Shown: one piece after another, positions 32,926 through 54,543 of the stretch
Numbering within the stretch: the first letter of the stretch is position 1
Layout of the letters: every line of letters begins with the position of its first letter
Source: Candidatus Omnitrophota bacterium
GTDB taxonomy: Bacteria; Omnitrophota; Gorgyraeia; Tantalellales; Tantalellaceae
Reading direction: 5' to 3'
NCBI GenBank assembly: GCA_041667545.1
Contig: JBAYES010000001.1
Coordinates: forward strand, 5,928-69,927
DNA: 64,000 bases
The notes under the pieces: generated by a model
What the model was told of the DNA's origin: nothing
The model's input: only the letters and a program-made list of their open reading frames with translations
Databases searched by the model: none
Position numbers and translations under genes: made by a program

Positions 32926-32926
32926 T

Positions 32927-34216: not shown

Positions 34217-34301
34217 TTTTCCGAAAAAGCCTTTGACAAAGAAAAATTATAGTGTATAATCTATAATACATATAACTTATAAGCTATATGGCAAGGCTAA
34301 T

Positions 34302-35533: not shown

Positions 35534-35551
35534 TAGGAAAGGGGGACAGGC
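35456..35551 (+). repeat. 96-bp direct repeat, copy 1 (3' end of the XRE gene plus AGGAAAGGGGGACAGGC)
   Basis: About 96% identical to 37614-37709. Confidence 0.9.
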
Positions 35552-35605
35552 TACTTTTTATTCCTACAGTTCCCACAATATAAAAAGTTGCCTGTCCCCC
35601 TTTTT
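35541..35605. terminator. long-stem hairpin with a T-run on either strand (GGGGGACAGGC...GCCTGTCCCCC TTTTT)
   Basis: 11-bp perfect GC-rich stem, extendable to about 20 bp through ACTTTTTA/TAAAAAGT, followed by TTTTT. A T-run also follows on the - strand. Second copy at 38463-38523. Confidence 0.55.
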
Positions 35606-35694
35606 CACAACGAGCAACCCCGTACCACTCGCTTCGCTCGGGCACGGGTAGGCGAGCACCCAGCAACCTCTATGGGCGAGTCAACATTTTAACG

Positions 35695-36462
35695 TTGGCG
35701 AAACTATGGAAACATGATCGATCGACGAGGTGCATGTTGAATAAACCGGAACTTAAACAGTATTTAATGAGCGGTCAGTTCCTGAATGCTCTGTCCAGAC
35801 GGAAATATTTTAGCTTTGACGAGCTTTATGCCAAATTGTCGAAAAAGTATCCGGATTTAAAAAGAGTACAGCTATCTCGCTATATGTTTGATGTTGTTAA
35901 AAATGGAAAAATATATGGCGCCGGTCGAGGATGGTACTCTTTGATCAAAAGTCCTTTGACGGCAGAGCCGGAGTTTGTTCAAGAAATTGTGGATCTTCTG
36001 GCCAATGAGTATCCGCAAGTTGTTTTTTCCTGTTGGTCGACCAAACATATCCGGTCTTTTATGCATCACCTGCTTGCGAAATTTGTGACATTTGTTTATA
36101 CGCAGTGGGAAGCGATGGAGATGATGGGAGATTTTCTGGAATCGGAAGGATACAAGGTATGGGTCAATCCGCACGGGAAGGATATTGATCGTTTCCATGT
36201 GAATATGGAGAAAACCGTTGTTATTCGCCCATTGATTTCTCGTGTTCCGGTTAATGGCCATTTTGCGACATTTGAGAAAATTCTGGTCGATCTGGGGGTG
36301 GAGATCCGGCAGTTGCCTTTAATGGATGAGAGCGAATATGACACCTTGTTATCGAATGCTTTGACAGCCGGACGTGTGGATGTCGGAACTCTGATTAGTT
36401 ATGCCAAGAGGCGGCGGTTAAGTATTGACAAGACTGTATTCAATATTCGCAAGGCGTTATGA
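35695..36462 (+). CDS. AbiEi-like antitoxin/transcriptional regulator
   Basis: N-terminal region with a GAGRGWYSL motif typical of AbiEi-family wHTH domains. Sits immediately upstream of an AbiEii gene. Confidence 0.5.
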   Translation: MAKLWKHDRSTRCMLNKPELKQYLMSGQFLNALSRRKYFSFDELYAKLSKKYPDLKRVQLSRYMFDVVKNGKIYGAGRGWYSLIKSPLTAEPEFVQEIVDLLANEYPQVVFSCWSTKHIRSFMHHLLAKFVTFVYTQWEAMEMMGDFLESEGYKVWVNPHGKDIDRFHVNMEKTVVIRPLISRVPVNGHFATFEKILVDLGVEIRQLPLMDESEYDTLLSNALTAGRVDVGTLISYAKRRRLSIDKTVFNIRKAL

Positions 36463-36515
36463 ATTAAATCCACATTTATCAAAAGTGTGGATTTAATTCA
36501 TATAGGGAATCTTAT

Positions 36516-37592
36516 ATGATTGAAAACAGGTGTTTTACGGCATCGTGGATTGAGCAAAAAAGGCGCGAAATCGGGCGTGTTGATCCGGCTCTCTTGGAAA
36601 AAACCATATATGCGATGGCACTTCTTTGCGGGCTGGCCCGGTCAAAAATGCCTTTTGTCTTCAAGGGCGGGACCAGTTTGATACTGCTCATTAAGGACTT
36701 CCGCAGGCTTTCCATCGATGTCGATATCGTTGCCGATATTCCACGGTCAGAATATGAGGTGATTCTGGAGGAGATCGGGAAGACGGCTCCGTTTTTGGGC
36801 TACGTGGAGGATAAGCGCGGTGACCGCGGCTTGCCAAGGCGGACGCATTTTAAGTTTGCGTATCATTCAGTCGTTTCTAAGCGCAAGGATTATGTTTTGC
36901 TGGATATTCTGGAAGAGAAGAATATCTATCCGACAACAAAGATGGTTGCCATTGAGCCTTCATTTGTAGAAGTATCACGGCGAGTTTCCGTACGAATGCC
37001 GACAGCCGAATGTCTCTTGGGGGACAAGCTTACGGCATTTGCTCCGAATACGATAGGTGTTCCTTACGAAAGGAAGTCCGGAATGCAGATCATCAAGCAC
37101 TTGTTTGATATCGGGGAGCTTTTTGGAGTTGCCGAAGATATGAACATGGTAAGACGGGCGTATGAAGCAATCGCCAGAGCTGAGATCGGCTATAGAGAGA
37201 ACGCTTTTATTTTGGAAGAGGCATTGACGGATACTTTTAATACTGGCGTCAAAGTTTGTATGATGGGCATGAGAGGAGAAAGGGCGGGTCGGGAAGCGGA
37301 GGTCTTGCGGAAGGGAATTCAACGGGTTGAAAGCCATCTGGTTAATACGTTGTTCACACTGACAGAAGCTAGATTAGCGGCATCTCGGGCGATTCTGTTA
37401 TCCGCTTTGGTGAGAGAAAAAACAGACCGCAGAGGTCTGGGGGCTTTTCGTTGGAAGCCACAAGATGACGGGGGATTGGGTTCGCTTTCGCTAAACGGGG
37501 AATTGGAGAGACTGAACCGGATCAAGTTGATCTCTCCGGAAGCGTTTCATAATCTCCACACGGCCCAAGGCTTTTTAGTCGAGAAGATATGA
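36516..37592 (+). CDS. AbiEii-family nucleotidyltransferase toxin (type IV TA/Abi)
   Basis: FKGGTSLILLIKDFRRLSIDVDIV NTase motif and DUF1814-like length of 358 aa. Confidence 0.65.
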   Translation: MIENRCFTASWIEQKRREIGRVDPALLEKTIYAMALLCGLARSKMPFVFKGGTSLILLIKDFRRLSIDVDIVADIPRSEYEVILEEIGKTAPFLGYVEDKRGDRGLPRRTHFKFAYHSVVSKRKDYVLLDILEEKNIYPTTKMVAIEPSFVEVSRRVSVRMPTAECLLGDKLTAFAPNTIGVPYERKSGMQIIKHLFDIGELFGVAEDMNMVRRAYEAIARAEIGYRENAFILEEALTDTFNTGVKVCMMGMRGERAGREAEVLRKGIQRVESHLVNTLFTLTEARLAASRAILLSALVREKTDRRGLGAFRWKPQDDGGLGSLSLNGELERLNRIKLISPEAFHNLHTAQGFLVEKI

Positions 37593-37728: not shown

Positions 37729-38454
37729 ATGTATCTATCAGTGATCATACCAGCCTACAACGAAGAAAAAAACATCGAAGGGACTCTTGCCGAAATAGAG
37801 GCATATCTCGCGGGTAAGGATTTAGCATCCGAAGTCATCCTCATCGACGACGGCTCGATAAACTGGACAGTTGTTAAGGCTCGCGAATTTGAAGAACGAA
37901 TTCGCGATTTCAGGATAATCGAAAGCAAGCCAAATCACGGGAAGGGATACGTTGTCAGGAGAGCCATGCTGGAGGCGCAAGGCGAGTACAGTCTTTTTAT
38001 GGACGCAGATAACTCCACTTCGATAAAGGAATTAGAAAATTTTTTACCCGCCATAAGCGATAAATTTGACATCTACATAGCTTCCCGAAGGATATCCGGT
38101 TCCAAAGTGAAAGTTCCTATAATGCGCCGCGCTTTAGGCAATGTGTACATATTTGTAGCGCGCATCCTCCTCGGCATAGGTATAAGCGATATTAATTGCG
38201 GGTTCAAAATATACAGCAAAAAGTCCGTTCAAGACATTTTTACAAAGCAGCTCATGAACGATTGGAGTTTCGACGCCGAAAATCTGTTTGTTGCGAAAAA
38301 GTACGGTTACAAGATAAAAGAGATTCCGGTAGAATGGAAGCACAAATACACGTCAAAAGTAAGGCCGTTTAGTGACGGGATCAAAAGTTTCACAAGTCTC
38401 GTAAAAATAAGAACAAACGACCTTTTGGGGAAATACCGCATAAATAGAGGATAG
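37729..38454 (+). CDS. GT2 polyprenyl-phosphate sugar transferase (DPM1/GtrB/ArnC-like)
   Basis: LSVIIPAYNEEKNIEGTL N-terminus, DDGS and DAD motifs and 241-aa length. Confidence 0.8.
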   Translation: MYLSVIIPAYNEEKNIEGTLAEIEAYLAGKDLASEVILIDDGSINWTVVKAREFEERIRDFRIIESKPNHGKGYVVRRAMLEAQGEYSLFMDADNSTSIKELENFLPAISDKFDIYIASRRISGSKVKVPIMRRALGNVYIFVARILLGIGISDINCGFKIYSKKSVQDIFTKQLMNDWSFDAENLFVAKKYGYKIKEIPVEWKHKYTSKVRPFSDGIKSFTSLVKIRTNDLLGKYRINRG

Positions 38455-38462
38455 AGGAAAAG

Positions 38463-38523
38463 GGGACAGGCTGCTTTTATCCCTACGGTTCCCACAATAT
38501 AAAAAGTTGCCTGTCCCCCTTTT
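38463..38523. terminator. long-stem hairpin with T-run, copy 2
   Basis: GGGGACAGGCTGCTTTTAT...ATAAAAAGTTGCCTGTCCCCC TTTT. Confidence 0.55.
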
Positions 38524-38538
38524 ACGGATGCCTTCAAT

Positions 38539-39231
38539 ATGATAACGATAGTATTACCAACATACAATGAAGCGGAGAATACGCCAAGGCTTATAATGAG
38601 CCTTGAGAATAGTTTTAAAGACTCTCTTGAGATCCTGGTGGTGGATGACGATTCTCCGGATAAGACCTGGCAAATAGTCGAGAGTATGGGGCTTCCCGAA
38701 GTGCGCGTTATAAGACGTATAGGCGAAAGGGGTCTTGCCACGGCTATTGCGAGAGGAGTTGACGAAGCCAGGGGTGATATAGTAGGTTGGATGGATGTGG
38801 ATATGTGTCATCCCCCGTCACTACTTCCTCAAATGTTGTCTTTTTTGAACGAATATGATGTTGTTATAGGATCAAGGTACGTTAATGGCGGGAAAGATGA
38901 CAGGGGACCATTCAGGGTGTTTACAAGCAGGCTGATTAACCGGTTCGCGGGTCTTTTATTGGGATTTTATGTTAAGGATTATGACAGCGGATTCATTCTT
39001 ATAAAGAAAGAGGTAATAGATAGAGTTGGGTTCCCATCAAGCGGATATGGGGATTATTTCATAGAGCTTATGTACAGGTGTAAAAGAAATGGATTTAAGG
39101 TTAAAGAGGTTCCATATGTTTTCAGGGATAGGGAAGTGGGAGAATCTAAAACCGCCGGTAGTCTTATGGATTTCTTCAAATTGGGATTTGGCTACATTAC
39201 CCGCATAGTAAAATTAAGGTTCAGATCTTGA
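38539..39231 (+). CDS. GT2 polyprenyl-phosphate sugar transferase (DPM1-like)
   Basis: ITIVLPTYNEAENTPRL, VVDDDSPDKT and WMDVDM (DxD) motifs. Confidence 0.8.
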   Translation: MITIVLPTYNEAENTPRLIMSLENSFKDSLEILVVDDDSPDKTWQIVESMGLPEVRVIRRIGERGLATAIARGVDEARGDIVGWMDVDMCHPPSLLPQMLSFLNEYDVVIGSRYVNGGKDDRGPFRVFTSRLINRFAGLLLGFYVKDYDSGFILIKKEVIDRVGFPSSGYGDYFIELMYRCKRNGFKVKEVPYVFRDREVGESKTAGSLMDFFKLGFGYITRIVKLRFRS

Positions 39232-39662
39232 ATAAAGGTCGGGGGAGGGGGGCTATGGAATGTATAAAGTCCAAAAAGGGCAACATAATAGCTATTGTGA
39301 TACGTGAAAAAGACAGGTTTGAGGGGATAAAATTCTTCACTCCTTCTAATTTTTCTCAACAAGTAGGCCTCTTAACCCACAAGAAAGGATCTATAGTAAA
39401 ACCTCACGTTCATAAACTTATTGAAAGAAAGGTAGAGATAACTCAGGAGGTTCTTTTTGTCAAAAAAGGAAAAATAGCTCTGTATCTCTATGATGAAAGT
39501 AACAAGCACATGGCTACAAGGTATCTAAAAAAAGGCGATACGGTAATTCTCGCAAGTGCCGGGCATGGCATAAAAGTCCTGCAGGAAAGCGTTATTTTTG
39601 AGGTAAAACAGGGCCCTTATGCGGGTGCCGACGATAAAGTGTATCTTAAGAAAAAACTTTAG
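39228..39662 (+). CDS. cupin-fold sugar 3,4-ketoisomerase-like protein (FdtA/WxcM C-terminal-like)
   Basis: 144-aa protein with a His-rich cupin motif HKKGSIVKPHVH. Positioned directly before a DegT aminotransferase, as in FdtA-FdtB pairs. Confidence 0.5.
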   Translation: MNKGRGRGAMECIKSKKGNIIAIVIREKDRFEGIKFFTPSNFSQQVGLLTHKKGSIVKPHVHKLIERKVEITQEVLFVKKGKIALYLYDESNKHMATRYLKKGDTVILASAGHGIKVLQESVIFEVKQGPYAGADDKVYLKKKL

Positions 39663-39670
39663 GGAGACAC

Positions 39671-40789
39671 ATGAAATTCATACCGGTAAACGAACCCCTG
39701 CTGGGCAAAAAAGAATTAAAATATGTGACAGATTGTATAAAAACAGGCTGGATATCGTCTAAAGGCGAATACATAAATAAATTTGAAAACAAGTTTGCTG
39801 AAGTTTGCGGGGTAAAGTACGGCATATCTACCACAAACGGGACTACAGCTCTTCATCTTGCCCTTGCTTCCCTGGGAATAGGCAAAGGTGATGAAGTTAT
39901 AATGCCAACTTTTACCATGATAGCCACGGCTTATGCGGTTCTCTATACGGGGGCTAAACCTGTTTTTGTCGACTCCGAAGAGAGGACATGGAACATGGAC
40001 ACATCCAAAGTCGAAAAGCTCATAAATAAAAATACAAAGGCTATACTTCCCGTGCATATTTACGGCCATTCGGTGGATATGGATCCTTTGCGGAAGCTTG
40101 CCCGAAAATATGATCTTTACCTGGTTGAAGATGCTGCAGAAGCGCATGGCGCCGAGTATAGGGGGGAGAGATGCGGATCTTTGGGGGACATAGGATGTTT
40201 TAGTTTCTATGGCAACAAGATCATAACTACCGGTGAAGGAGGGATGATAGTTACCAATAATAGAAAAATAACCGAAAAAGCCAGACTGTTGAAGGATCTG
40301 GCGCATTCTCCGGGGAAAAGGTTTCTTCATTCTGAGCTGGCATATAACTATCGTATGACCAATATGCAGGCGGCGGTCGGACTGGCTCAAGTCGAGCAGA
40401 TAAACAAATTCATTAGAAAAAAAAGAAAAATAGCTCAGACCTATAAGGAAAATCTAAAAGGTGTAAAAGGTTTGAGGCTTCCTGTCGAAGAGAAATGGGT
40501 AAAAAATGTTTATTGGATGTACGCGATCCTGATCGAAAAAGGGTTCGGAATTACGAGAGATAAGCTTATGACCGAACTTGCTGAAGAAGGAGTAGGCACA
40601 AGGGCGTTTTTCGTTCCTATGCATAGGCAGCCTGTGATCGTGAATAACGGGATATGCGATAAAAAAACTTCATATCCTGTCGCCGACGATATAGCGGAAA
40701 GAGGATTGTACCTTCCCACGGGCATGACACTCAGGGAAAAAGATATCGTAACGGTATGTAACAAGTTGAGGGAAATCCAACAAAAGTAG
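39671..40789 (+). CDS. DegT/DnrJ/EryC1-family sugar aminotransferase
   Basis: FIPVNEPLLGKKE...GWISSKG N-terminus and the CFSFYGNKIITTGEGG lysine region. Confidence 0.85.
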   Translation: MKFIPVNEPLLGKKELKYVTDCIKTGWISSKGEYINKFENKFAEVCGVKYGISTTNGTTALHLALASLGIGKGDEVIMPTFTMIATAYAVLYTGAKPVFVDSEERTWNMDTSKVEKLINKNTKAILPVHIYGHSVDMDPLRKLARKYDLYLVEDAAEAHGAEYRGERCGSLGDIGCFSFYGNKIITTGEGGMIVTNNRKITEKARLLKDLAHSPGKRFLHSELAYNYRMTNMQAAVGLAQVEQINKFIRKKRKIAQTYKENLKGVKGLRLPVEEKWVKNVYWMYAILIEKGFGITRDKLMTELAEEGVGTRAFFVPMHRQPVIVNNGICDKKTSYPVADDIAERGLYLPTGMTLREKDIVTVCNKLREIQQK

Positions 40790-40812
40790 GAGGCGGAAGA
40801 CCCCGATCCATT

Positions 40813-42228
40813 ATGGAAAACTATAAAAAAAGACTGATATTCACACACTTGCTGTTCATTTTGTCGCTCGCTGTGATCTATTCTATTCCATATGTGGCCC
40901 GCATGGCGGGGGATACATTTCTCCCTCCTCAGGGGAGATTTGTAAGGTTTTATAACATAGGAGTGATAACCGCTATATTTTTGAGCTACGGCAGTATGCT
41001 TTATTATCTGAAAAAAAGCGGGATGAATGTTTTTGAAAGAAGCCGGCTGACGGTATATTTCTGGGGACTGACCGTTACGGTCTCTCTGCTTTTATGTTTT
41101 TCTCACGCCGTTCATTCCAGCGATCTTTATGAGTATTGTATAAGGGGAAGAATGGCGGGTCTTTACGGCATAAATCCTTATTTCAGCATGCCCTCTGACA
41201 TACAGAGCGATATGTTCTATCCTCTCATATTCTGGAAAAATACCCCTGAATGTTACGGTCCGGCGTGGGTGTACATAGGCATATTCAACACGTTACTTTT
41301 TCCGAACAGCCTTATTCTTACGATCTTCTTTCATAAATTTGTGCTGTTTGTTTTTCTTCTGGCCGGCGGGTATTTTTTCTTTAAGATATGCGAAGAGTTA
41401 AACTTTAAAAACAAACACATTCTCACGGTAGCGTATATCCTTAACCCTCTTATGCTGCTGATGACGATAGTTGACGGGCATAACGAAATAGCCATGGTTA
41501 CGTTCATTCTCGCGGCTTTATGGTGTGTTTTGAGATCGAGGTACGCGGTTTCCATGATCCTTTTTGCCGTAGCGGTAAATATCAAGTTCACATACGTTAT
41601 GATCGCGCCGTTATTTGTGGCTTATATACTTTGGGGTCCCGGCCCGAAGCCTTTAAACGAACGACTTAAAGAAAGCGCGATCGGTATTTTTCTGGCGGCG
41701 CTTGTTACGTCGATTTTATGGGCCTCTTTCACCTGGGGTTCCGTACCGGCCATTATTGATTATTACAGGGACGTTAATACCTGGTTCTGGGCGGACACCA
41801 TACCGTACATATTCTATTTTATCCTCGAAAAAACAGGCATGGACTCTCCTCGTAAGATCATAGAAATGGGTTCTTTGGGGATTTTCGCTATTTCATATTT
41901 TTTCGCGGCTATTTATTTTTTTCGCAACGTCAAGAGAGATAAGAGAGCGATATTTACTGCCGGCAGTTTCATTTTTCTCGCTCTATATGTTACTAATTAT
42001 ACGCCCTTTCAGCCTTGGTATCTCTTGTGGGTGATACCGCTTTTGCTTTTAAGCGGTATACGGCCTAAATTTCTGCTCGTGACCATGATGTCATATTTTT
42101 TAATGATGACCTTCTGGAAAAGGATGTCAGCTTTGGCGGTACCCATGATGGTTTTATATTTTATAGTCTACTTTTCACTTAAAAACAAAAAGACCGAGCT
42201 GAAAAACTTTGTTTTCAGCCTCGAGTAG
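40813..42228 (+). CDS. polytopic membrane protein, candidate GT-C-type glycosyltransferase
   Basis: About 12-13 predicted TM helices with conserved-looking loop residues (HSSDLYEY, YGPAW). Found within a lipid-linked glycosylation cluster. Confidence 0.45.
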   Translation: MENYKKRLIFTHLLFILSLAVIYSIPYVARMAGDTFLPPQGRFVRFYNIGVITAIFLSYGSMLYYLKKSGMNVFERSRLTVYFWGLTVTVSLLLCFSHAVHSSDLYEYCIRGRMAGLYGINPYFSMPSDIQSDMFYPLIFWKNTPECYGPAWVYIGIFNTLLFPNSLILTIFFHKFVLFVFLLAGGYFFFKICEELNFKNKHILTVAYILNPLMLLMTIVDGHNEIAMVTFILAALWCVLRSRYAVSMILFAVAVNIKFTYVMIAPLFVAYILWGPGPKPLNERLKESAIGIFLAALVTSILWASFTWGSVPAIIDYYRDVNTWFWADTIPYIFYFILEKTGMDSPRKIIEMGSLGIFAISYFFAAIYFFRNVKRDKRAIFTAGSFIFLALYVTNYTPFQPWYLLWVIPLLLLSGIRPKFLLVTMMSYFLMMTFWKRMSALAVPMMVLYFIVYFSLKNKKTELKNFVFSLE

Positions 42229-42236
42229 AGGGAAAT

Positions 42237-42956
42237 ATGTTTTTGTCAGTAATAGTGCCGGCGTACAACGAAGAAAAGAGAATAGGAAGAACACTTTCTT
42301 TAATATCAGATTATCTCAAGGATAAGGACTTCGGATACGAAGTTATTGTCGTGGACGATGGTAGCGGAGATATGACCGTTAATGAAGTGGAAACCAGCAA
42401 ACTTTTCAGAGGGAACAATTTAAAGTTGATTAAAAACGGAGTCAACAGAGGTAAAGGTTTTTCAGTAAAGAGGGGTATTTTAGAATCCGTCGGCGAATAC
42501 GTACTAATATGCGATGCGGATATGTCGACCCCGATACCGGAGGTCGAGAAACTATTAGTTTATATGCCGCAGGGGAATGACATTGTCCTGGGATCACGAA
42601 GCATTAAAGGCGCCGACATAAGAGTGGCACAACCTTTTCAGAGAAGGATAATGGGCAAAACGTTCAACCTTTTGGTAAAAATGTTCCTATTCAGAGGGAT
42701 CAATGATACACAATGTGGCTTTAAACTGTGCAGGGGGGATCTCGCCCGACGCTTGGCCGAAAAGATGCGAATCGATGGATTTAGCTTTGATGTGGAGATC
42801 CTCTATCTTGCCTTAAGATCCGGATATACGATTAAGGAGGTAGGAGTTGTGTGGATAAATTCGGCGGATAGCAGAGTTCATCCTGTTTTTTCTTCCCTTC
42901 AGATGATGAGGGATATTTTGCGTATAAAATTCATACATAAAAAAATAGCCTTGTGA
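42237..42956 (+). CDS. GT2 polyprenyl-phosphate sugar transferase (GtrB/ArnC-like)
   Basis: LSVIVPAYNEEKRIGRTL, VVDDGSGD and CDADMS motifs. A paralog of 37729..38454. Confidence 0.8.
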   Translation: MFLSVIVPAYNEEKRIGRTLSLISDYLKDKDFGYEVIVVDDGSGDMTVNEVETSKLFRGNNLKLIKNGVNRGKGFSVKRGILESVGEYVLICDADMSTPIPEVEKLLVYMPQGNDIVLGSRSIKGADIRVAQPFQRRIMGKTFNLLVKMFLFRGINDTQCGFKLCRGDLARRLAEKMRIDGFSFDVEILYLALRSGYTIKEVGVVWINSADSRVHPVFSSLQMMRDILRIKFIHKKIAL

Positions 42957-42960
42957 TGCG

Positions 42961-44277
42961 ATGAATCCGCAAATCTTTTTACTGGTTTTTTATCTTGCTT
43001 CGATAGTTATCCTTTTGAAACGCAAAGGGCATATCATATATCTAATGTGCCTTACTGTGCCTTTTTATGATAATTTCGAGGGATTGTTCGTTAATTTGTC
43101 TCTGTTTTCAATAAAGTTCACTTTAAAGCCTTTTCTGTTCTTTGAGCTTGTGCTGGTTTCTCTGGTGGTCTTGGATATCTGGAGAGAGAAAAGACTTGGA
43201 AAACGTCTGTCATTTTTGAATAAAGCGGCTTTTCTGTCCATGTTCTTATTTTCGTTGTTAGCCTTGATATTTACGATACGAGAGGGGATACCAACATTTG
43301 TCGGCTTTAACGTTTGTCTGCTGGCTGTTTTATTGTTGGCAGTACCCTATTACTGTAAGAAGGAAACAATTGAACTTAGGAAACTCTTATTTTACCTGTT
43401 CGCAGGGTGTGTAATATCCTTTATCCCGATGCTTTTTGAAAACATCATTCCTTCTATTTTATCATGTTCTCCGCCGATTAACCGCGGGCTTAAGATCTAT
43501 GGAATGACCTTTGCAATGATAGCGTCCCCGGCGGTCTATGCTTATTTGATGTCCCGAAGGGTACATGTTCATATCCTTTCAGGGATTTTCCTGTTCATTA
43601 TTTTTATAATGACGATATTGACCCAATCCAGAGCAAGCATTTTTGCGCTGTTTTTATCGGTATTTTTCTGTACCATCTTTATTTCCGTTAAAAGGGCCAA
43701 TTATGGTCTAAATATGACCAGGATCTCGAGCATAGTTCTTATTTTAGGCTTAGCGGTTTTTGGCGCGTATGCCCTAAACAACTCGGTGATTAATGAGATC
43801 GATATTGTCAAAGTTTTCAAAGATGATTCCGTTATAATACAGAAAGATCCGTTCATGGGGTCGATAGACAGTACGTTTTTTAAAAAAGTGTGGGCTCTGT
43901 TAGCGCATGAAAGGACCATCGCCTGGCAGAGTACGATCAAGATATTGAAAACAGATCCTTTAATCGGCAGGGGATTGGTCTTTATGCCGACACAAGTTGG
44001 AACTCATAATGCATATTTGGGAGTTTTCCTGTCATCGGGCATAATCGGTCTGTTTTTTTATATAGTCGGAATGTTAGCCGTTCTTATGAATCTGATATTC
44101 AAAATCATAAAAAATGACGAATATCCAAAATATCAGTTTTTTTATTTTTCTCTTTCTACCGCATTATTGACTTATTGTGTGAATGGTATTTTTCAGACAA
44201 ATTTTAATGAATATTTGCCGTGGTTTTTTGCCGCGGTATCTTTTCTTGACAGTCCCATCACCGGTAAAGTTGACTGA
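42961..44277 (+). CDS. O-antigen ligase-like (Wzy_C domain) membrane protein
   Basis: Polytopic protein with the hallmark HNAYLGVFLSSGIIG (H-N-x-[YF]-L-x5-G) and SRASIFALFL segments. Confidence 0.65.
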   Translation: MNPQIFLLVFYLASIVILLKRKGHIIYLMCLTVPFYDNFEGLFVNLSLFSIKFTLKPFLFFELVLVSLVVLDIWREKRLGKRLSFLNKAAFLSMFLFSLLALIFTIREGIPTFVGFNVCLLAVLLLAVPYYCKKETIELRKLLFYLFAGCVISFIPMLFENIIPSILSCSPPINRGLKIYGMTFAMIASPAVYAYLMSRRVHVHILSGIFLFIIFIMTILTQSRASIFALFLSVFFCTIFISVKRANYGLNMTRISSIVLILGLAVFGAYALNNSVINEIDIVKVFKDDSVIIQKDPFMGSIDSTFFKKVWALLAHERTIAWQSTIKILKTDPLIGRGLVFMPTQVGTHNAYLGVFLSSGIIGLFFYIVGMLAVLMNLIFKIIKNDEYPKYQFFYFSLSTALLTYCVNGIFQTNFNEYLPWFFAAVSFLDSPITGKVD

Positions 44278-44279
44278 TA

Positions 44280-45989
44280 ATGGAAAAACGAATTATTTTG
44301 TTCGCGATAATATGTGCAGGGTTCTTCGTGAGGGTATGGGGAATAGATTACGGGTTGCCTTATGTTCTGCACCAGGATGAGCCCATAATAATAAATCATG
44401 CGCTTGCTTACGGAACCGGAGATCTCAACCCGCATTTTTTTATTATACCTCCCGCATGTTCCTATCTGCTTTTTTTCTGTTACATTGTTTTTTTTGTAAT
44501 GGGGAAATTATTTGGGATTTTTTCGGGAGTTTCCGACTTTGCGATGAGTTATTTTAAAGATCCCACTTATTTTTACATAATAGCGCGCACAGTTCTTGGT
44601 GTCATCCCGGGGACATTGAGTATACTATTCACATATACGCTTTATAAGAGGCTTTTTTCAGAAAAAGGCGCGCTTTACGCGGCGGCCGTAGTCGCGTTTT
44701 CATTTTTGACCGCGGTTAATTCGCATTACGCGTATGTCGATAATATGATGCTCATGTTAGTGCTTCTCGCGTACTTATCTATTGTCAACATGATGCAAAG
44801 ACCCTCCTTAAAAAACTATCTAATTGCAGGAGCCTTGTTGGGGGGGGCAATAGGAGTTAAATATAATTCCGGAATTCTCATAGTTCCCATGCTTTTAGCG
44901 CACGTTTTCGCGGTATCAGATGCTATCCGGAAGAAAACCGACATTGTGTTGGACAAGAACATGTGGATGGCCATGGCCGCCGCGGCGGCTGTTTTTATAG
45001 TGATAAATCCTTTTGCTGTCCTGGATTGGCAGTATTTCGCGTCCAGTGTTCCGGGCAGGATAAGGACCGCGTATATGGGGTGGACACATCACCTTATATA
45101 TTCTCTGAGAGAAGGGATGGGCTGGTTCCTGGTCATACCGGGAATCATCGGAGCTCTTGCAATGTGCGGAAGGACAGAAAAGAGAAAAACACTGGTATTT
45201 CTATCGTTCCCCGTTGTTTTTTATATGCACCTTGTGCTTGGCAGTCAAAGGTTTTCAAGATATGCTCTACCTTTGGTGCCTTTTTTAGCCATGGGAGCAG
45301 CTTTTTTCTTTTTCAATTTTATGGGTAAATACGCGAAAAACCGCATTGGGAAAAATATAATAATGACACTTTCGTTGATCCTTATCATTCCAACGCTGGT
45401 TAAATCCGTTAAGGCGGATATGCTTTTTGCCGGTCAGGATACACGTTCTCTTTCAGCTTTGTGGATAGAAGAAAATATTGTTCCGGGGTCAAAAATAGCG
45501 GTGGACCACACTTCGTACCGGCCGCAGATATTTCAGTCGGATGATCAGATAAAGGAAAAGTATCGCCTCGCGGATTCCCAGAAAGGACTCGAAAGCGTCA
45601 AGCAAAAGAAACTGGATTATCTGCTCAAAGTCGCCGAGGGCAGAAGATCATATGACGTGTTCTTCATAGGCGCGCAAAGCGGGGAGAAGTCGATGTTCAT
45701 GTCGATGTCGCCGGGTATCGAGGGCGATCTTGAGGTTCTCAAAAAGAATGGTATAGAATACATGGTGGTGAACTACTATACGGGTTCACCGGACTCGGAT
45801 CTTATAAATTCTGTCAAGGCCGAAGGAAAAGTCCTGGCGGAATTCAGCCCTTACCATGACGGGCATATCGCAGTCCCTAACGACAAAGTGGATCATACGT
45901 TCATGAACATAGGGTCAAAAGAGCTTTTCTCCAGGAATGCGACCGGGCCCTGTATCGTGGTTTATGCCATTGAAAAACATGAAAAGTAA
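44280..45989 (+). CDS. GT-C glycosyltransferase, family 39/83-like (PMT/ArnT-type)
   Basis: N-terminal TM helix then the loop-1 motif VLHQDEPIIINHALAYG (DE). About 11 TM helices and a C-terminal soluble domain. Confidence 0.65.
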   Translation: MEKRIILFAIICAGFFVRVWGIDYGLPYVLHQDEPIIINHALAYGTGDLNPHFFIIPPACSYLLFFCYIVFFVMGKLFGIFSGVSDFAMSYFKDPTYFYIIARTVLGVIPGTLSILFTYTLYKRLFSEKGALYAAAVVAFSFLTAVNSHYAYVDNMMLMLVLLAYLSIVNMMQRPSLKNYLIAGALLGGAIGVKYNSGILIVPMLLAHVFAVSDAIRKKTDIVLDKNMWMAMAAAAAVFIVINPFAVLDWQYFASSVPGRIRTAYMGWTHHLIYSLREGMGWFLVIPGIIGALAMCGRTEKRKTLVFLSFPVVFYMHLVLGSQRFSRYALPLVPFLAMGAAFFFFNFMGKYAKNRIGKNIIMTLSLILIIPTLVKSVKADMLFAGQDTRSLSALWIEENIVPGSKIAVDHTSYRPQIFQSDDQIKEKYRLADSQKGLESVKQKKLDYLLKVAEGRRSYDVFFIGAQSGEKSMFMSMSPGIEGDLEVLKKNGIEYMVVNYYTGSPDSDLINSVKAEGKVLAEFSPYHDGHIAVPNDKVDHTFMNIGSKELFSRNATGPCIVVYAIEKHEK

Positions 45990-48291
45990 AGGAACTTTTT
46001 ATTTTATAGCGTTATTTCTTACGGGGGTATGCTTAATATTCCACGAGATTTTATTTCTCAGAACCGCTTTTCTTAAAGCCGACTACCTTCAACAGCTTTT
46101 CCCATGGTCCGCGCTTTATTCCGACAGCATAAAAACTTTTAATCTGCCGATGTGGATAAGAGGCGTGCAATGCGGGTTTCCGCTATTTGCCGAGGGTCAG
46201 ACAGGGGTTTTGTATCCTTTTAACCTTATTTTCTTTCTTATTCTTCCCCTGAAAGCGGCTTACAATTATTCTTTCCTGTTCCACTTTGCGATCTGCGGAA
46301 TTTTCACTTTTTTCTTTGCCAGAAGAAAAGGTGCCGATGTCTGGGGCGGAGGGCTGGCCGCTTTGCTTATATGTTTCGGCAGCGCCTATGCCGGATGCTT
46401 TATACATCTTGCGTCGTTAAGGGCTCTTGCATGGTTCCCTCTGGTCCTCCTGTTATTTGACGAATATCTGAAAAAAAATAATCCGGGATCTTTCTTGTTG
46501 ATATCTATTGTCGCGGGGATGCAGCTTCTTGCGGGTTCAATGCAGATGTCCGCTTACGCATTTTTTTTCTATTTTTTATATTTCATCCATGGGACCAGGC
46601 AGGGGAAAAAGCCGTTGTTACGGTCCGTAGGGGTCTTTTTCATAGTTACAGCCCTTTCCTTGACTATAGCGCTTCCGCAGTTGTTAGCTACATATAAAAT
46701 GTCCGGGCTCTCTAACCGGATATCCTTAATGACTCCGGATTTTGCTTTATGGAATTCGCTCTCACCCGCGGCGCTTGTTGGATGTGTCATGCCCTATGTG
46801 GGAGAGCTCTTCGCCAGGGGAAACATAATATACATCAGCGTACTGGGACTTTTTTTTTCATGCGTGGCTATATGGCTTTCCAGGTCAGAAAGGCCGTTGA
46901 GGCCGCTTGTTGTAATGCTGATCTTCTCAATATTACTCGCATTGGGAAAATATAATCCTGTTTATACGGCATTGATCAAGGCCGCTAATTTTTATTCGTT
47001 CCGCGCTCCGTCAAGATTCATATTCTTCGGTATATTCTCTCTTGCTGTTCTCGCGGGCGCGGGGTTCACTTATTTAATGGAGAACAGGGAAAAGGTGCCC
47101 GGCCGCGTATATAACGGTTTTTTATGGATACTATCCGGTATACTGGGGGTATTTTTTACGGCAAAGGCTGTTCTAAGGATCTACGGAAGCAGAATATTGC
47201 AGCTGGCTTCTACCTATGTTAAGGACAACATATATGGAAAACCCTTTCACAGGTATGATCTCGAGACGTATATGGAAAGGACGGAAGGTTTTTATAGACA
47301 GCTTAAAAGCATATTTTCTTTTGAAAACCCTTATGTTATTATGACTTTGCTTGTCGTCTTGTGTTCTTTTTTATTCATCTACGCCCTCAAAAGGTCATAT
47401 AGGGGAAAGCTGTTTTTCAAGTACGCATCCCTTGTTTTTATATGTGCCGAGCTGGTCATTTTCAGCCGGTTTTCGAAAGGTCTGAAAGCCGAGATCGCCT
47501 CTTTTGAGTACATCGTTCCCAAAGAGCGGAGCGTGTTCAATGTCCTGAAAAACGACAATGAATTATACAGGATATGCCCCTTCGGGAGGTTCGAGACCCT
47601 GCCCGTATGGTTGAAGCCGAGCATGAACACGTATTACGGAATAGACAGTATCGCCATATACTCTCCGCTTGTAAATGCCGATTATTTTGATGTGATGAAG
47701 GGGACGGGCGTGGTGGATGATTCCATAGGTATTTTTCCGCCTGAAAAAGAAGTGCTGTATCAAAAATTATCAATTTTCAAAAAACTTAATGTGAAATATA
47801 TCGTTTCGACCGTTGAACTTGAGCATGATGAATTGGACTTTGTTTTATCGGATAAGGGTCTTCGTCTGTATGTTTTGAAAAATTATCTGCCCAGATGCTG
47901 GATATCATCCGATGTGAATGGGGCGAATGACGTTAAATCCGAGATACGAATGACCGAATATTCTTCAGGCAGGGCCGAAGTAAGCGCAGGGAGCAAGACC
48001 GGAGGATATTTGATCTTTTCCGAGAAATTCTATCCGGGATGGGAGGTCTACGTCAATGGGAAAAAGGAGGAAATGGTCAAAGCCTCCGGCATTTTGCAGG
48101 CAGTCAAGATTGCTCCGGGTAAACATGATGTCACGTTCAAATATGATCCCGAACACGTCGGGATATTGATCATGATATCAACGGCAGCATTTTTTTTGGT
48201 ACTTCTAATAGCGGTATTGTTTTTAACCTCAGGGAAATATAAACCAGGCCGTCTTTTTGCCGGCGGTAACTTCTACGCGGATCATGAATAA
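45979..48291 (+). CDS. YfhO-family membrane glycosyltransferase (GT-C)
   Basis: N-terminal ...ADYLQQLFPW...LPMWIRGVQCGFPLFAEGQTGVLYPFNLIFF matches the YfhO signature. About 780 aa with a large C-terminal soluble domain. The start is ambiguous among 45937, 45964 and 45979. Confidence 0.7.
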   Translation: MKSKGTFYFIALFLTGVCLIFHEILFLRTAFLKADYLQQLFPWSALYSDSIKTFNLPMWIRGVQCGFPLFAEGQTGVLYPFNLIFFLILPLKAAYNYSFLFHFAICGIFTFFFARRKGADVWGGGLAALLICFGSAYAGCFIHLASLRALAWFPLVLLLFDEYLKKNNPGSFLLISIVAGMQLLAGSMQMSAYAFFFYFLYFIHGTRQGKKPLLRSVGVFFIVTALSLTIALPQLLATYKMSGLSNRISLMTPDFALWNSLSPAALVGCVMPYVGELFARGNIIYISVLGLFFSCVAIWLSRSERPLRPLVVMLIFSILLALGKYNPVYTALIKAANFYSFRAPSRFIFFGIFSLAVLAGAGFTYLMENREKVPGRVYNGFLWILSGILGVFFTAKAVLRIYGSRILQLASTYVKDNIYGKPFHRYDLETYMERTEGFYRQLKSIFSFENPYVIMTLLVVLCSFLFIYALKRSYRGKLFFKYASLVFICAELVIFSRFSKGLKAEIASFEYIVPKERSVFNVLKNDNELYRICPFGRFETLPVWLKPSMNTYYGIDSIAIYSPLVNADYFDVMKGTGVVDDSIGIFPPEKEVLYQKLSIFKKLNVKYIVSTVELEHDELDFVLSDKGLRLYVLKNYLPRCWISSDVNGANDVKSEIRMTEYSSGRAEVSAGSKTGGYLIFSEKFYPGWEVYVNGKKEEMVKASGILQAVKIAPGKHDVTFKYDPEHVGILIMISTAAFFLVLLIAVLFLTSGKYKPGRLFAGGNFYADHE

Positions 48292-49942
48292 AAAACAAGT
48301 CTATATTCTGGCAGTCTTGCTTCTTTCGTTCTTTACCGTCCTGGCCGTAACGAGTGTCTGGCCGGGCAGGAAGTCCGCCACCGCGGATGAGTTGGCACAT
48401 CACATTCCGGTCGGATATGTCCTTCTTTCAAAGGGTGATCTCAAGATGGATCCTTCCCAGCCTCCTCTTGCCAGATATCTTGCGGCGCTTCCCCTGGTGA
48501 TTTTTATGGATCTTAGTATCCCTGACAATGAAGACCAGTGGCGCAGGGAAGACAGGTCCGAGTTCGGCAGGGATTTTTTTTACAAGTTCAATGACCATCC
48601 GGATAGGATGTTATTTTACTCAAGATGTTCTTTTATTGTCATCGGCCTGCTTTGCGGGATCATACTGTTTGTCATGGCAAGATCGTTTTATGGCGACAGG
48701 GCCGCTCTTTTCAGTCTTTTCCTTTACAGCTTTTCGCCTAACATCATCGCTCATACAAGGCTTTCTACGGTAGATATGACCGCGACATGTTTTATTCTGC
48801 TTTCGGTGTATACCTTTTGGAGATTTCTACGGAAACGATCTCTGAAAAATATAGTGATCGCGGGAGGATGTTTGGGGCTTGCTCAGCTTTCTAAATATAC
48901 TTCACTTTTGCTTTATCCGACATTCATCTTTCTCACGGCACTCGAGATCCCATCCGTTCCGGAAGGTGAGCGAGCGCGGCTATTCAAAAAACTGTTTGTC
49001 ATCTTTGCGTGTTCCATAATTTTATTGTGGGCAGGTTATGGCTTTGATTCTGATCCGATATTGAATGGAGCGATGAGAGTCCAGGAAAAACTCGGGATTG
49101 CGCATAGCTTTGCTCAGAAATTAATACCGTTCTGGAACGAAAATATGTCTCGAGTTTTGGACCATGTCTTGCTTAATGTGCCGGTTCCCCTCGGTACGCA
49201 TATGCAGGGTACACTGGGGGTTATGAGACACGGATATGAAGGCCATAGCGTTTATTTTCTCGGGCAGTGGTCGGGTAAAGGCAATCCACTGTATTTCGTT
49301 TTGTCCTTTATGGTAAAAACGCCCATTCCGTCCATCCTTTTTATCGTTGCAGGGTTTTTCCTGGTCTTTAAAAAGGGCATGCGCAGAAAAGAGAGATTTC
49401 TTCTGACGTTGATAGCGGTTATTTTCCTCACGGCATCTTTAAGTAAACTGCAGTTGGGACATAGGTACGTTTTGCCCATGTATCCATTCTGTTTTATACT
49501 GGCCGGCAGGAGCGCGGAGTTATGGAAGAAGCCTTACAAGATACCTATCAGCCTGCTTATGGTGTGGTATCTCGTCACCGCATTCTGGATATGGCCCGAT
49601 TATATCAGCTATTTCAATGAAACGATAGGCGGTCCGGCTAACGGATACAAATATCTGAGAGATTCGAATATCGATTGGGGGCAGGACCTCCCCGCGCTGG
49701 CGGAATACATGCGCGAGAACGACATGCAGGAAGTGAGGTTGATGTATTTCGGATCGGCTGAACCTTCCGAGCACGGCATCAGATACAAGCCATTGGAGGA
49801 GTCGGAAACCATATTTCCGGGATCGAACGTGTACGCCATAAGCGTTCATAAACTTGAAAGGGTAAAATGGGCCCGGTACCATGAGCCGGACGCGAAATTG
49901 GGGTATTCGATATTTGTCTATGATTTCAGAGAGGACGAATAG
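48284..49942 (+). CDS. GT-C glycosyltransferase, family 39/83-like (ArnT/PMT-type)
   Basis: Loop-1 motif ATADELAHHIPVGY after the first TM, about 11 TM helices and a C-terminal domain. Start taken at ATG 48284, an 8-nt overlap. Confidence 0.65.
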   Translation: MNKKQVYILAVLLLSFFTVLAVTSVWPGRKSATADELAHHIPVGYVLLSKGDLKMDPSQPPLARYLAALPLVIFMDLSIPDNEDQWRREDRSEFGRDFFYKFNDHPDRMLFYSRCSFIVIGLLCGIILFVMARSFYGDRAALFSLFLYSFSPNIIAHTRLSTVDMTATCFILLSVYTFWRFLRKRSLKNIVIAGGCLGLAQLSKYTSLLLYPTFIFLTALEIPSVPEGERARLFKKLFVIFACSIILLWAGYGFDSDPILNGAMRVQEKLGIAHSFAQKLIPFWNENMSRVLDHVLLNVPVPLGTHMQGTLGVMRHGYEGHSVYFLGQWSGKGNPLYFVLSFMVKTPIPSILFIVAGFFLVFKKGMRRKERFLLTLIAVIFLTASLSKLQLGHRYVLPMYPFCFILAGRSAELWKKPYKIPISLLMVWYLVTAFWIWPDYISYFNETIGGPANGYKYLRDSNIDWGQDLPALAEYMRENDMQEVRLMYFGSAEPSEHGIRYKPLEESETIFPGSNVYAISVHKLERVKWARYHEPDAKLGYSIFVYDFREDE

Positions 49943-49943
49943 A

Positions 49944-50693
49944 ATGAAAAGTGAAAAAGCCAGCCTGATAAGGCATTATAAGAATCTCTGGTTTTTCAAT
50001 TTTAACCGGTTGAAGGACAATAACTACAAGGACATGAGGGAATACCTTGCCGGGGTCTTTTTATCGGATATAGAAGAATTTATCCCTCTTACGGGGAAAA
50101 AAGTTCTGGATGTCGGCGGAGCCAGAGGAGAGCTGTGTAAGGTCATTAACGAGAAAAGGGGTTGTGAGGCCGTCAATCTTGATCCCACTCCTTACGAATA
50201 CGGGGAATATTCGAGTGATTTTATATGGAAAGACACCGTCGCGGGGGTTGCTGAGGATATGCCGTTCAAGGATAATGAATTCGACCTTGTAATTTGCAGG
50301 GGCGTGTTTGAACATATATTTCCTGAAAAACAGCAGATTTCGTTAGATGAAATGTTCAGGGTAACCAGGCCGGGCGGGTATTGTTACATAACTATACCCC
50401 CCTGGTATAATCCCTGTGCCGGACATGGATTGAAACCGTTTCATTACCTGCCGTTCAAGTTATCGAAATTCATGGCGCAAAAGGCCTACGGAAAAAAAAT
50501 AAAGGAAAATTCCTGGAGAGAAAGAAGGCTTTTCAGGATAACATTCAGAAGTATGCTGAAAATGATATCTTCAAGCGGATTTAAACTGGTGGAGACTGAA
50601 GATGTCCATTTCAGAATGCATGTACTTACCAAAATCCCCATTCTGCGAGATATTGCCGTTCCGGCTGTAGCCTTCATCCTTTCGAAAAGCTGA
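49944..50693 (+). CDS. class I SAM-dependent methyltransferase
   Basis: VLDVGGARGELC (motif I) and LVICRGVFEHIFPE (Methyltransf_11-like). Confidence 0.75.
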   Translation: MKSEKASLIRHYKNLWFFNFNRLKDNNYKDMREYLAGVFLSDIEEFIPLTGKKVLDVGGARGELCKVINEKRGCEAVNLDPTPYEYGEYSSDFIWKDTVAGVAEDMPFKDNEFDLVICRGVFEHIFPEKQQISLDEMFRVTRPGGYCYITIPPWYNPCAGHGLKPFHYLPFKLSKFMAQKAYGKKIKENSWRERRLFRITFRSMLKMISSSGFKLVETEDVHFRMHVLTKIPILRDIAVPAVAFILSKS

Positions 50694-50792: not shown

Positions 50793-50820
50793 TTGACAAT
50801 AGAGATTTTTGTCATATAAT
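50793..50820 (+). promoter_or_regulatory. consensus sigma70 promoter with an overlapping palindromic operator
   Basis: TTGACA (50793-50798), a 16-bp spacer, then TATAAT (50815-50820). The inverted repeat TGACAA-N9-TTGTCA spans the -35 box and the spacer. Confidence 0.7.
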
Positions 50821-50869
50821 AGCCGAGATATTCAGTTATGCTTGCACTTGCCAAACAATCGGAGGATGT

Positions 50870-54541: not shown

Positions 54542-54543
54542 AT

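Follow-up and report, generated by a model that had tools for sequence, protein, structure and literature searches.

A candidate operon for glycosylation outside the cytoplasm in Omnitrophota, built around a recurring core of GT-C membrane enzymes

The 64,000-nucleotide stretch of a Candidatus Omnitrophota bacterium genome analysed here (assembly GCA_041667545.1, contig JBAYES010000001.1, positions 5,928 to 69,927; hereafter the window) contains a block of glycosylation genes at 37729–50693. The block encodes three GT2 glycosyltransferases (GT2a, GT2b and GT2c), four GT-C membrane glycosyltransferases (an MptA/B-family enzyme, PMTa, YfhO and PMTb), a Wzy_C protein, a cupin, a DegT-family aminotransferase and a methyltransferase, all on the + strand. 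Its best-supported interpretation is an operon that follows the established logic of multi-component transmembrane glycosylation, in which a monosaccharide is loaded onto polyprenyl phosphate by a GT2, crosses the membrane when the lipid is flipped and is transferred outside by a GT-C (PMC8035078; PMC11127046; PMC5836110). We are confident of this general mechanism, that is, of GT2-made polyprenyl-phosphate sugars being transferred in the periplasm by GT-C enzymes. The full statement, which adds an envelope glycan as the acceptor, we regard as evenly poised. An earlier note, made from the DNA letters and a list of open reading frames (ORFs), had proposed lipid-linked glycosylation from the same genes; Pfam and NCBIfam recovered every gene that it listed, + strand throughout.

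Candidate lipid-sugar synthases

Searches against solved structures, which covered GT2a and GT2b in this class, linked both to polyprenyl-phosphate glycosyltransferases. The best match of GT2b was the dolichyl-phosphate mannose (Dol-P-Man) synthase of P. furiosus (5mlz, E = 2.4e-39), followed by ArnC (3.6e-14) and GtrB (1.6e-10). GT2a also matched 5mlz best (E = 9e-15), then GtrB and ArnC. The top NCBIfam matches of all three GT2s (Dol-P hexose transferase, PgfS, AglJ, PpgS and ArnC) agree with this placement, which bears out the lipid-linked logic proposed before. The GT2s had also been described as GtrB/ArnC/DPM1-like. The polyprenyl-phosphate class holds on the 5mlz and NCBIfam matches but the GtrB/ArnC subtype does not, as C-terminal helices are missing. 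Indeed, the proteins are short (230–241 amino acids), and hydropathy plots revealed no hydrophobic segment in GT2b or GT2c and no C-terminal membrane helices in any of the three; the single weak hydrophobic stretch of GT2a (residues 135–153) falls inside the catalytic domain. Thus, the GT2s resemble the short DPM1/PpgS type, unlike GtrB and ArnC with their C-terminal membrane helices.

GT-C membrane enzymes

GT-C enzymes carry a catalytic acidic residue early in the protein, and such a residue is invariant in each of the four membrane enzymes. The AlphaFold model of YfhO, built on a 38-sequence alignment, was confident (pLDDT 90, pTM 0.90), and its best 21 Foldseek matches in the PDB were all GT-C enzymes (STT3, AftA, AftD, EmbA/B/C and PglB). 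D49 is invariant across the 38 sequences. The PMTb model (pLDDT 92.6) matched ArnT best (5f15, E = 1e-8), then Pmt4, STT3, AglB, PglB and ALG9/12, and GT-C enzymes were the only structure matches of either model. In PMTb, D44 and E45 are invariant across 46 sequences. The PMTa profile matched yeast Pmt1 best among solved structures (2.5e-6) and then ArnT (1.8e-5); its H31, D33 and E34 (HQDEP) are invariant and lie just past the first predicted membrane helix. PMTa and PMTb both contain the PMT and PMT_2 domains and the first-loop Asp-Glu motif (D33/E34 and D44/E45, respectively). The Pfam scan detected no MIR domain and no PMT_4TMC in either, and both end in a small ArnT-like periplasmic domain, which in PMTa spans about 185 amino acids.

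The remaining membrane enzyme had been noted before as another polytopic membrane protein. Its presence was confirmed and it can now be named an MptA/B-family GT-C, based on its matches to NF038066 and PF26314 and on the profile match to glycosylphosphatidylinositol (GPI) mannosyltransferase 1 among solved structures (E = 9e-12). The protein has about 12 hydrophobic segments and invariant D104, E107 and Y108. Basic residues precede the first predicted helix of the GT-Cs, so the positive-inside rule places the loops with the invariant acidic residues in the periplasm; we infer that the early acidic residues of all four enzymes lie on that side. Direct searches against solved structures gave nothing useful for YfhO (single sequence and profile), PMTa (single sequence) or PMTb (profile). 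The earlier note had named the absence of GT-C catalytic loop motifs from structural models as grounds to drop its proposal, and had recommended fold prediction. The GT-C calls held for all four proteins, each with a fold or family assignment and an invariant early acidic residue, and the folds predicted for YfhO and PMTb were confident and matched GT-C enzymes exclusively.

A conserved core with optional modules

The genes of the block are tightly spaced, with intergenic distances of 84, 23, 8, 23, 8, 4, 2, −26, −8 and 1 nt, the maximum being 84 nt. A promoter and terminator scan found no strong internal promoter and no terminator-like site in any intergenic gap of the block, which is weak evidence because the scan relied on consensus matching untuned to Omnitrophota. 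Perfect sigma-70-type consensus sites occur only outside the block, at 34233–34260 (12/12) and 50793–50820. Furthermore, the gene order recurs in other genomes at 45–70% amino-acid identity and is therefore not a chance arrangement. The block thus looks like a single transcription unit.

Synteny was examined by gathering loci around YfhO homologues (numbered with an L below) and comparing their ORFs with the window proteins. Almost all of the named YfhO homologues came from Omnitrophota, a phylum in the Planctomycetes-Verrucomicrobia-Chlamydiae (PVC) group. Named members among the loci include Candidatus Tantalella remota and Candidatus Omnitrophus magneticus, and Candidatus Orphnella occulta is among the YfhO and PMTb homologues. 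The conserved core is GT2c–PMTa–YfhO–PMTb (i.e., GT2–PMT_2–YfhO–PMT_2). Both PMT_2 genes lie within 6 kb of the YfhO orthologue in 26 of the 41 Omnitrophota loci, many of the remainder being truncated contigs, and 20 of those 26 additionally carry an orthologue of GT2a or GT2c no more than 10 kb away. GT2c orthologues (47–62% identity) stand directly 5' of PMTa in more than 25 loci. YfhO relatives outside Omnitrophota share 23–30% identity and have a different gene context. YfhO homologues of Latescibacterota and Gemmatimonadota (L049–L084) are flanked, on the opposite strand, by a short-chain dehydrogenase/reductase (SDR), an RmlA-like nucleotidyltransferase and an epimerase, which looks like a different conserved neighbourhood in other phyla.

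Two relatives (L003 and L004, ~47–77% identity) keep the full order epimerase–Gmd–DegT–GT2a–GT2b–cupin–DegT–MptB-like–GT2c–PMTa–YfhO–PMTb–methyltransferase, from which the true unit in the window would start near 30165. The gene list of the earlier note therefore stands but its block limits (37729–49942) do not: in the relatives the unit starts at the epimerase–Gmd–DegT genes, which in the window (30165–34216) are separated from GT2a by an AbiE insertion, and the methyltransferase, though present as claimed, lies just beyond the 49942 end, at 49881/49944–50693. The AbiE insertion (3.3 kb) sits between DegT1 and GT2a, a site at which L003 and L004 lack it, and is preceded by its own 12/12 sigma-70 consensus (34233–34260). 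PADLOC scored its AbiEi at 126.7 bits and its AbiEii at 321 bits. This predicted toxin–antitoxin insertion splits the unit and, judging from the relatives, is not part of the glycosylation system.

The comparison also shows that two sugar modules are optional. Module A consists of Epi–Gmd–DegT1 with or without GT2a, which shares 38.5% identity with GT2c and forms its own orthogroup. Epi orthologues (74–81% identity) lie directly 5' of Gmd–DegT–GT2 in seven loci (L004, L006, L015, L021, L027, L029 and L047), and DegT1 is directly 5' of GT2a in L003 and L004. Module B comprises GT2b–cupin–DegT2–MptB-like. GT2b, the cupin and DegT2 co-occur in seven loci, six of which also have the MptB-like orthologue, and L010, cut at the contig start, holds cupin–DegT2–MptB-like. 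Gmd adjoins module B in L071 and is near it in L009 and L028. At the other extreme, the minimal loci L016, L021 and L027 have one GT2 with three GT-Cs. The methyltransferase orthologues (55–68% identity) follow PMTb in L003, L004, L008 and L010, and one lies between YfhO and PMTa in L012.

The Wzy_C gene, previously described as ligase-like, is present (PF04932), yet synteny places it outside the conserved core as a recurrent accessory gene. L028 and L088 have it in the corresponding position, L009 and L087 have it elsewhere within GT2/GT-C-rich loci, and L003 and L004 lack it; in all, the gene is embedded in a GT2/GT-C locus in five genomes. A protein identical to its product bears the NCBI name ‘O-antigen ligase family protein’. 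The protein had no match among solved structures or in NCBIfam, and just four homologues at E<1e-3, which suggests fast divergence. The Wzy_C superfamily also covers O-oligosaccharyltransferases of the PglL/PilO type.

Two loci contain additional genes of these families. In L004, a second set encoding an MptA/B-family GT-C, a GT2 and a methyltransferase (14761–17589) directly follows the methyltransferase, which suggests that such modules duplicate and diverge. L087 comes from a groundwater genome; there, four B12-binding radical SAM genes lie 3' of the Wzy_C homologue, interspersed with a short GT2 gene, an epimerase gene and two genes of the PMT_2 type (11326–21320). It is unusual to see radical SAM enzymes paired with GT2/GT-C genes.

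Table 1. Predicted genes of the glycosylation unit and of the insertion that splits it.
Feature	Coordinates	Strand	Predicted identity	Supporting match
Epi	30165..31106	+	NAD-dependent epimerase/reductase; first gene of the conserved unit in relatives	PF01370/PF16363
Gmd	31395..32375	+	GDP-mannose 4,6-dehydratase-like	PF16363, E 7e-121
DegT1	33092..34216	+	DegT-family sugar aminotransferase (candidate perosamine-synthase-like)	PF01041, E 1.8e-120
AbiE insertion	34302..37592	+	AbiEii-like (236 aa) and HTH_3 protein, then AbiEi (DUF6577)/AbiEii (358 aa) pair	Pfam AbiEii, HTH_3, DUF6577
GT2a	37729..38454	+	Optional GT2c paralogue	PF00535, E 1e-25
GT2b	38539..39231	+	First gene of module B	PF00535, E 1.6e-33
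Cupin	39228..39662	+	WbuC-family cupin, candidate keto-sugar isomerase/epimerase; module B	TIGR04366, 46.2 bits (cut-off 42)
DegT2	39671..40789	+	DegT-family sugar aminotransferase; module B	PF01041, E 1e-126
MptB-like	40813..42228	+	MptA/B-family GT-C; module B partner of GT2b	NF038066 (MptB), 44.5 (cut-off 40); PF26314 (precomputed)
GT2c	42237..42956	+	Core polyprenyl-phosphate sugar synthase candidate	PF00535, E 1.5e-24
Wzy_C	42961..44277	+	Wzy_C-domain membrane protein (ligase/polymerase/O-oligosaccharyltransferase superfamily); accessory	PF04932, 44.2 bits (cut-off 31.7)
PMTa	44280..45989	+	GT39/GT83-like GT-C; core	PMT_2, 58.4 bits (cut-off 26); PMT, 36.6 bits
YfhO	45937..48291	+	YfhO-family GT-C; core	PF09586, 58.9 bits (cut-off 28.5)
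PMTb	48257..49942	+	ArnT-like GT-C with small C-terminal periplasmic domain; core	PMT_2, 60.9 bits (cut-off 26); PMT, 37.9 bits
Methyltransferase	49881..50693 (alternative gene call starts at 49944)	+	S-adenosylmethionine-dependent methyltransferase with hydrophobic C-terminal tail; last gene of unit, optional	Methyltransf_11/23/25

Sugar supply and proposed mechanism

The sugar-supply genes point to GDP-linked amino sugars. Gmd scored 393 bits against TIGR01472, just below the cut-off of 415, and is likely the source of GDP-4-keto-6-deoxymannose for the amino-sugar branches. DegT1 had no NCBIfam equivalog above cut-off. The best NCBIfam match of DegT2 was the LegC family (384 bits, below the cut-off of 420), which acts on a GDP-sugar. 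The donors of the GT2s are probably GDP-sugars, since the GT2s are similar to Dol-P-Man synthases, Gmd lies beside or near module B in three loci, and DegT2 is closest to LegC. The cupin (135–144 amino acids, orthologues 54–74% identical) had no match among solved structures. It had been called FdtA-like; however, FdtA identity (PF05523) was rejected, as the cupin has no Pfam FdtA match and passes the WbuC model TIGR04366, which places it in the WbuC family instead.

From family membership and gene neighbourhood, we propose the following mechanism. In the cytoplasm, Gmd would form GDP-4-keto-6-deoxymannose, which DegT1 would convert to one amino-dideoxyhexose (perosamine-like) and the WbuC-type cupin and DegT2 to a second one. 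The methyltransferase may modify a sugar. Each of the three DPM1-like GT2s would then load one monosaccharide from a nucleotide sugar, probably GDP-linked, onto polyprenyl (undecaprenyl) phosphate, and some flippase would carry the lipid-linked sugars across the membrane. A Wzx-like MOP gene lies 14 kb downstream of the block. At the periplasmic face, the four GT-Cs would pass the sugars to the acceptor, each by means of its invariant early acidic residue. Co-occurrence across loci suggests that GT2b pairs with the MptA/B-like enzyme and that GT2c, and GT2a where present, serves the PMTa–YfhO–PMTb triad. One GT2 serving three different GT-Cs would imply that a given sugar is transferred several times, in succession or as alternatives, rather than added as a single side-branch.

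Fusion proteins were found among the YfhO homologues. P0120, a 1333-amino-acid protein from a Chloroflexota metagenome-assembled genome, fuses a MOP/Wzx-type flippase (PF01943, PF13440, PF03023) to a YfhO domain, which hints that Wzx-like proteins can serve YfhO enzymes. Other fusions join YfhO to VanZ (P0098) and a sulfotransferase-like domain to YfhO (P0100).

Nature of the acceptor and alternative explanations

The acceptor is most likely an envelope glycan, either the lipopolysaccharide (LPS) core or a polysaccharide ligated or polymerised by a Wzy_C enzyme; a protein acceptor is less likely. Consistent with a glycan are the neighbouring genes for dTDP-rhamnose, UDP-sugar dehydrogenase, a carbamoyltransferase and pseudaminic acid, the Wzx-like gene downstream, the LptD-like neighbour, the recurrent Wzy_C gene and the ArnT-like architecture of PMTb. 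Several observations weigh against this proposal or parts of it. The host is uncultivated. All GT2s score far below the NCBIfam equivalog cut-offs (e.g., 78 versus 375, 68 versus 500 and 60 versus 529), so the enzyme class is supported whereas the donor sugars are guesses. The Foldseek TM-scores are modest (0.35–0.58), and the GT-C fold assignment therefore relies on consistent match lists together with the hidden Markov model evidence. The ORF scans of the window and flank revealed no GtrA-type flippase. The core is kept across divergent genomes (YfhO identity 27–61%), and conservation this wide is more easily reconciled with a conserved acceptor than with an O-antigen that varies by serotype; lipid A or core, conserved proteins and a self-built polymer would all qualify. 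Protein glycosylation systems are known to include PMT-type Asp-Glu motifs and relatives of YfhO (PgfM). Finally, the 53 kb of glycan genes read contain no Leloir glycosyltransferase or initiating phosphoglycosyl transferase, so that a polysaccharide substrate made nearby would be hypothetical.

Three other acceptors or products deserve consideration. In a general protein O-glycosylation system, the GT-Cs would take monosaccharides off polyprenyl phosphate and attach them to Ser/Thr residues of proteins in the periplasm or at the surface, for example pilins and giant adhesins, in the manner of actinobacterial Ppm1/Pmt and streptococcal PgfS/PgfM1/PgfM2. Both PMT proteins pass the Pfam cut-offs for PMT and PMT_2 and retain the early Asp-Glu pair, yeast Pmt1 is the best sequence match of PMTa among solved structures, and the Wzy_C superfamily includes PglL/PilO-type members. 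PgfS is also among the top GT2 matches and YfhO weakly matches PgfM2, but the scores are far from the cut-offs (59–68 versus 500 for PgfS and 23.8 versus 1500 for PgfM2). A layout of one GT2 with several GT-Cs is that of Pgf (bioRxiv 10.1101/2022.10.10.511621), and many Omnitrophota have type IVa pili and giant ORFs (PMC10066038). However, the PMTs lack detectable MIR and PMT_4TMC domains, PMTb is ArnT-like in architecture and best structural match, the neighbours are all polysaccharide or nucleotide-sugar genes, and no locus has a candidate acceptor protein in or beside the block. We therefore consider protein O-glycosylation unlikely. Similarly unlikely is polymer building outside the cytoplasm, in which the GT-Cs would use polyprenyl-phosphate monosaccharides to initiate, elongate and branch an envelope glycan or lipoglycan, as in the assembly of mycobacterial lipomannan/lipoarabinomannan (polyprenyl-phosphomannose synthase with MptA/MptB/MptC) and arabinogalactan (decaprenyl-phosphate arabinose with Aft/Emb). 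The single GT2 for three GT-Cs in the minimal loci, the pairing of an MptA/B-family enzyme with a GT2 similar to Dol-P-Man synthases, the presence of AftA, AftD and Emb among the structural neighbours of YfhO, and the further GT2/GT-C pairs in L004 and L087 all speak for such a system, as does the lack of Leloir and initiating transferases. Yet that negative covers 53 kb, and the last 22 kb of the contig, farther downstream, may hold ordinary glycosyltransferases; the Wzx-like gene past the window suggests a conventional undecaprenyl-diphosphate-linked pathway as well; YfhO is structurally no closer to Aft/Emb than to the oligosaccharyltransferase/PglB family; and processive sugar addition is not a property that can be read from sequence.

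An Arn-like role, in which a cationic amino sugar would pass from undecaprenyl phosphate to lipid A phosphates or the inner core and lower the surface charge, is distinctly unlikely. The Arn pathway (ArnBCADTEF), which places 4-amino-4-deoxy-L-arabinose on lipid A, shares with the block an aminotransferase, an undecaprenyl-phosphate sugar GT2 and an ArnT-like GT-C within one operon. In addition, ArnT is the best structural match of PMTb (E = 1e-8), ArnC is among the top matches of GT2b, an LptD-like gene lies in the same region, and the wide conservation of the core would follow if the acceptor were itself conserved, as with lipid A. The earlier note had suggested an ArnB/ArnC/ArnT logic, but membership in the Arn pathway was rejected: window scans found no ArnA (dehydrogenase/formyltransferase), ArnD (deformylase) or ArnE/F, and the scores for ArnB (PRK11658, 233 versus 631) and ArnC (PRK10714, 60 versus 529) fell far short. 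Furthermore, the aminotransferases belong to optional modules rather than to the conserved core, and four GT-Cs exceed what lipid A modification needs. An accidental juxtaposition of unrelated, separately regulated glycan genes, which the earlier note had named as what would undo its reading, is hardly credible. The block has been remodelled by the AbiE and Wzy_C insertions, and a possible gene remnant follows at ~51136–51210. Nevertheless, its gaps measure only −26 to 84 nt, neither a strong internal promoter nor an intergenic terminator-like site was seen, and the conservation of gene order at 45–70% identity in many genomes contradicts a chance assembly.

Relationship to known glycosylation systems

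The component families and the overall logic of the operon are already known. The GtrA/GtrB/GtrC systems of Shigella and Salmonella and the pentofuranose system of Citrobacter youngae that founded GT136 (PMC11127046) use the same sequence of loading, flipping and GT-C transfer. Gtr-type systems add a sugar to a finished glycan in the periplasm, and their modules are gained and lost between strains, as are the modules described here. In contrast to them, the operon has no GtrA or MATE gene and its GT2s lack the membrane helices of GtrB. It also has three donors and four GT-Cs of three families rather than one of each, and a core conserved across many Omnitrophota genomes rather than a strain-variable or phage-borne one. 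Teichoic acid glycosylation by CsbB/GtcA/YfhO in Bacillus and Listeria likewise couples a GT2-made undecaprenyl-phosphate sugar to a YfhO-family GT-C that acts outside (PMC5836110; PMC7389260; PMC8035078). The host here is a PVC-group, probably diderm bacterium with no GtcA and no teichoic acid genes seen in the window, and its YfhO gene is flanked and overlapped by two GT39/83-like genes.

The S. mutans operon pgfS-pgfM1-pgfE-pgfM2 (bioRxiv 10.1101/2022.10.10.511621) also combines one GT2, more than one GT-C and a sugar-modifying enzyme. It differs from ours in its GT-C families, host envelope and equivalog scores, which fall far below cut-off here, and no acceptor adhesins were identified in our case. 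The actinobacterial systems Ppm1 with PimE/MptA/MptB and PpgS with Rv3779 have in common with the block a helix-free GT2, MptA/B-family GT-Cs and several GT-Cs per donor. These bacteria belong to a distant phylum with an unrelated envelope, and our MptB-like gene belongs to an optional module and has cupin and aminotransferase genes as neighbours, a hint that the donor is something other than plain mannose. The Arn pathway differs in the genes listed above and in that the amino-sugar genes of the block are optional. The earlier note had recognised no described operon type that joins YfhO to two PMT-like genes. Our searches of the literature on Omnitrophota and on GT-Cs agree, as they brought up no mention of this locus. 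Thus, what appears undescribed is the PMT_2–YfhO–PMT_2 triad with its own GT2, the modular amino-sugar add-ons and the distribution across many Omnitrophota genomes.

Genomic surroundings

The window belongs to a 100.7-kb metagenome contig (ENA ERZ27247361 k141_2522559), and NCBI assigns proteins identical to PMTb and Wzy_C to a Candidatus Omnitrophota metagenome-assembled genome. The block forms part of a super-locus of surface-glycan genes that exceeds 50 kb. The upstream housekeeping genes miaB, miaA, hflX and hrcA-grpE-dnaK-dnaJ are followed by two GGDEF proteins and a 922-amino-acid LptD_N/OstA-like protein. The GGDEF genes encode tandem diguanylate cyclases, one with a GAF domain, immediately 5' of the gene for this TPR/LptD_N-like protein (13760–19404). 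LptD had been assumed for the host, and the 922-amino-acid protein (16636–19404) does match, if marginally (LptD_N, 22.8 bits versus 20.4; OstA_2, 23.2 versus 21.2); with an LptD-like protein encoded, the host is probably diderm. A long stretch of nucleotide-sugar genes comes next, with ugd, rmlCABD, another NDP-sugar dehydrogenase gene, and genes for a TviC-like epimerase and a carbamoyltransferase. The RmlC-like ORF (20875–21603; 242 amino acids from the first start codon) matches dTDP_sugar_isom, weakly FdtA and, oddly, Polysacc_synt_C. Its start is probably over-extended, because the L087 orthologue was called at 149 amino acids.

Downstream of the block are a small HTH_17 gene and a nonulosonic-acid (pseudaminic-acid) cluster, with the Wzx-like MOP flippase just past the window end. 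The HTH_17 gene (86 amino acids; region 50793–51130) has a perfect TTGACA-16-TATAAT consensus at its 5' side. The protein is closely similar to the L003 copy and 75–76% identical to those of L031 and L032, whereas the flanking enzymes are far less conserved. In L003 and L031 it stands directly before nonulosonic-acid genes, and it is a candidate regulator of this cluster. An alternative identity of the gene (at 50870) as the excisionase of a mobile island was rejected, given the similar copies 3' of the GT-C block in L003, L031 and L032. Between HTH_17 and pseB (~51136–51210) is a 24-codon ORF (MDLADQKVLVTGADG...*) that resembles the N-terminal Rossmann motif of an SDR/epimerase. It may be the remnant of a cassette replacement, because the L003 epimerase begins at the same junction. 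The nonulosonic-acid cluster (51399–62862 in the window, 10852–20843 in L086) has PseB and PseC above the NCBIfam cut-offs. It also encodes a NeuB-like synthase, a CMP-transferase, a 752-amino-acid GNAT protein with an LIC12162 domain, a 409-amino-acid protein and a HisH/HisF-like pair. Beyond the window, it is followed by the Wzx-like flippase, a B12-radical SAM enzyme, an HpcH aldolase and a second CMP-transferase.

Implications for the Omnitrophota envelope

Omnitrophota is a widespread uncultivated phylum, many of whose members are ultra-small and thought to be host-dependent. To our knowledge, nothing is known about its surface chemistry. A conserved GT-C triad with its own lipid-sugar synthase offers a testable handle on the envelope, as it predicts lipid-linked sugars and catalytic residues, and the locus illustrates modular surface variation by gain and loss of sugar modules. 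It is also a source of new GT2/GT-C pairs for glycoengineering. More speculatively, and in our view rather doubtfully, Omnitrophota may assemble a major envelope glycan or lipoglycan, conserved across the phylum, mostly outside the cytoplasm from polyprenyl-phosphate monosaccharides, with the PMT_2–YfhO–PMT_2 triad and optional GT-C modules. The building blocks could possibly be GDP-derived amino-dideoxyhexoses such as a perosamine-like sugar. If true, this would be a mycobacterium-style GT-C assembly line in a probable PVC diderm and not the mere decoration of a Leloir-built O-antigen. Should the triad build a polymer instead of decorating one, assembly outside the cytoplasm by GT-C enzymes would extend beyond the actinobacteria.

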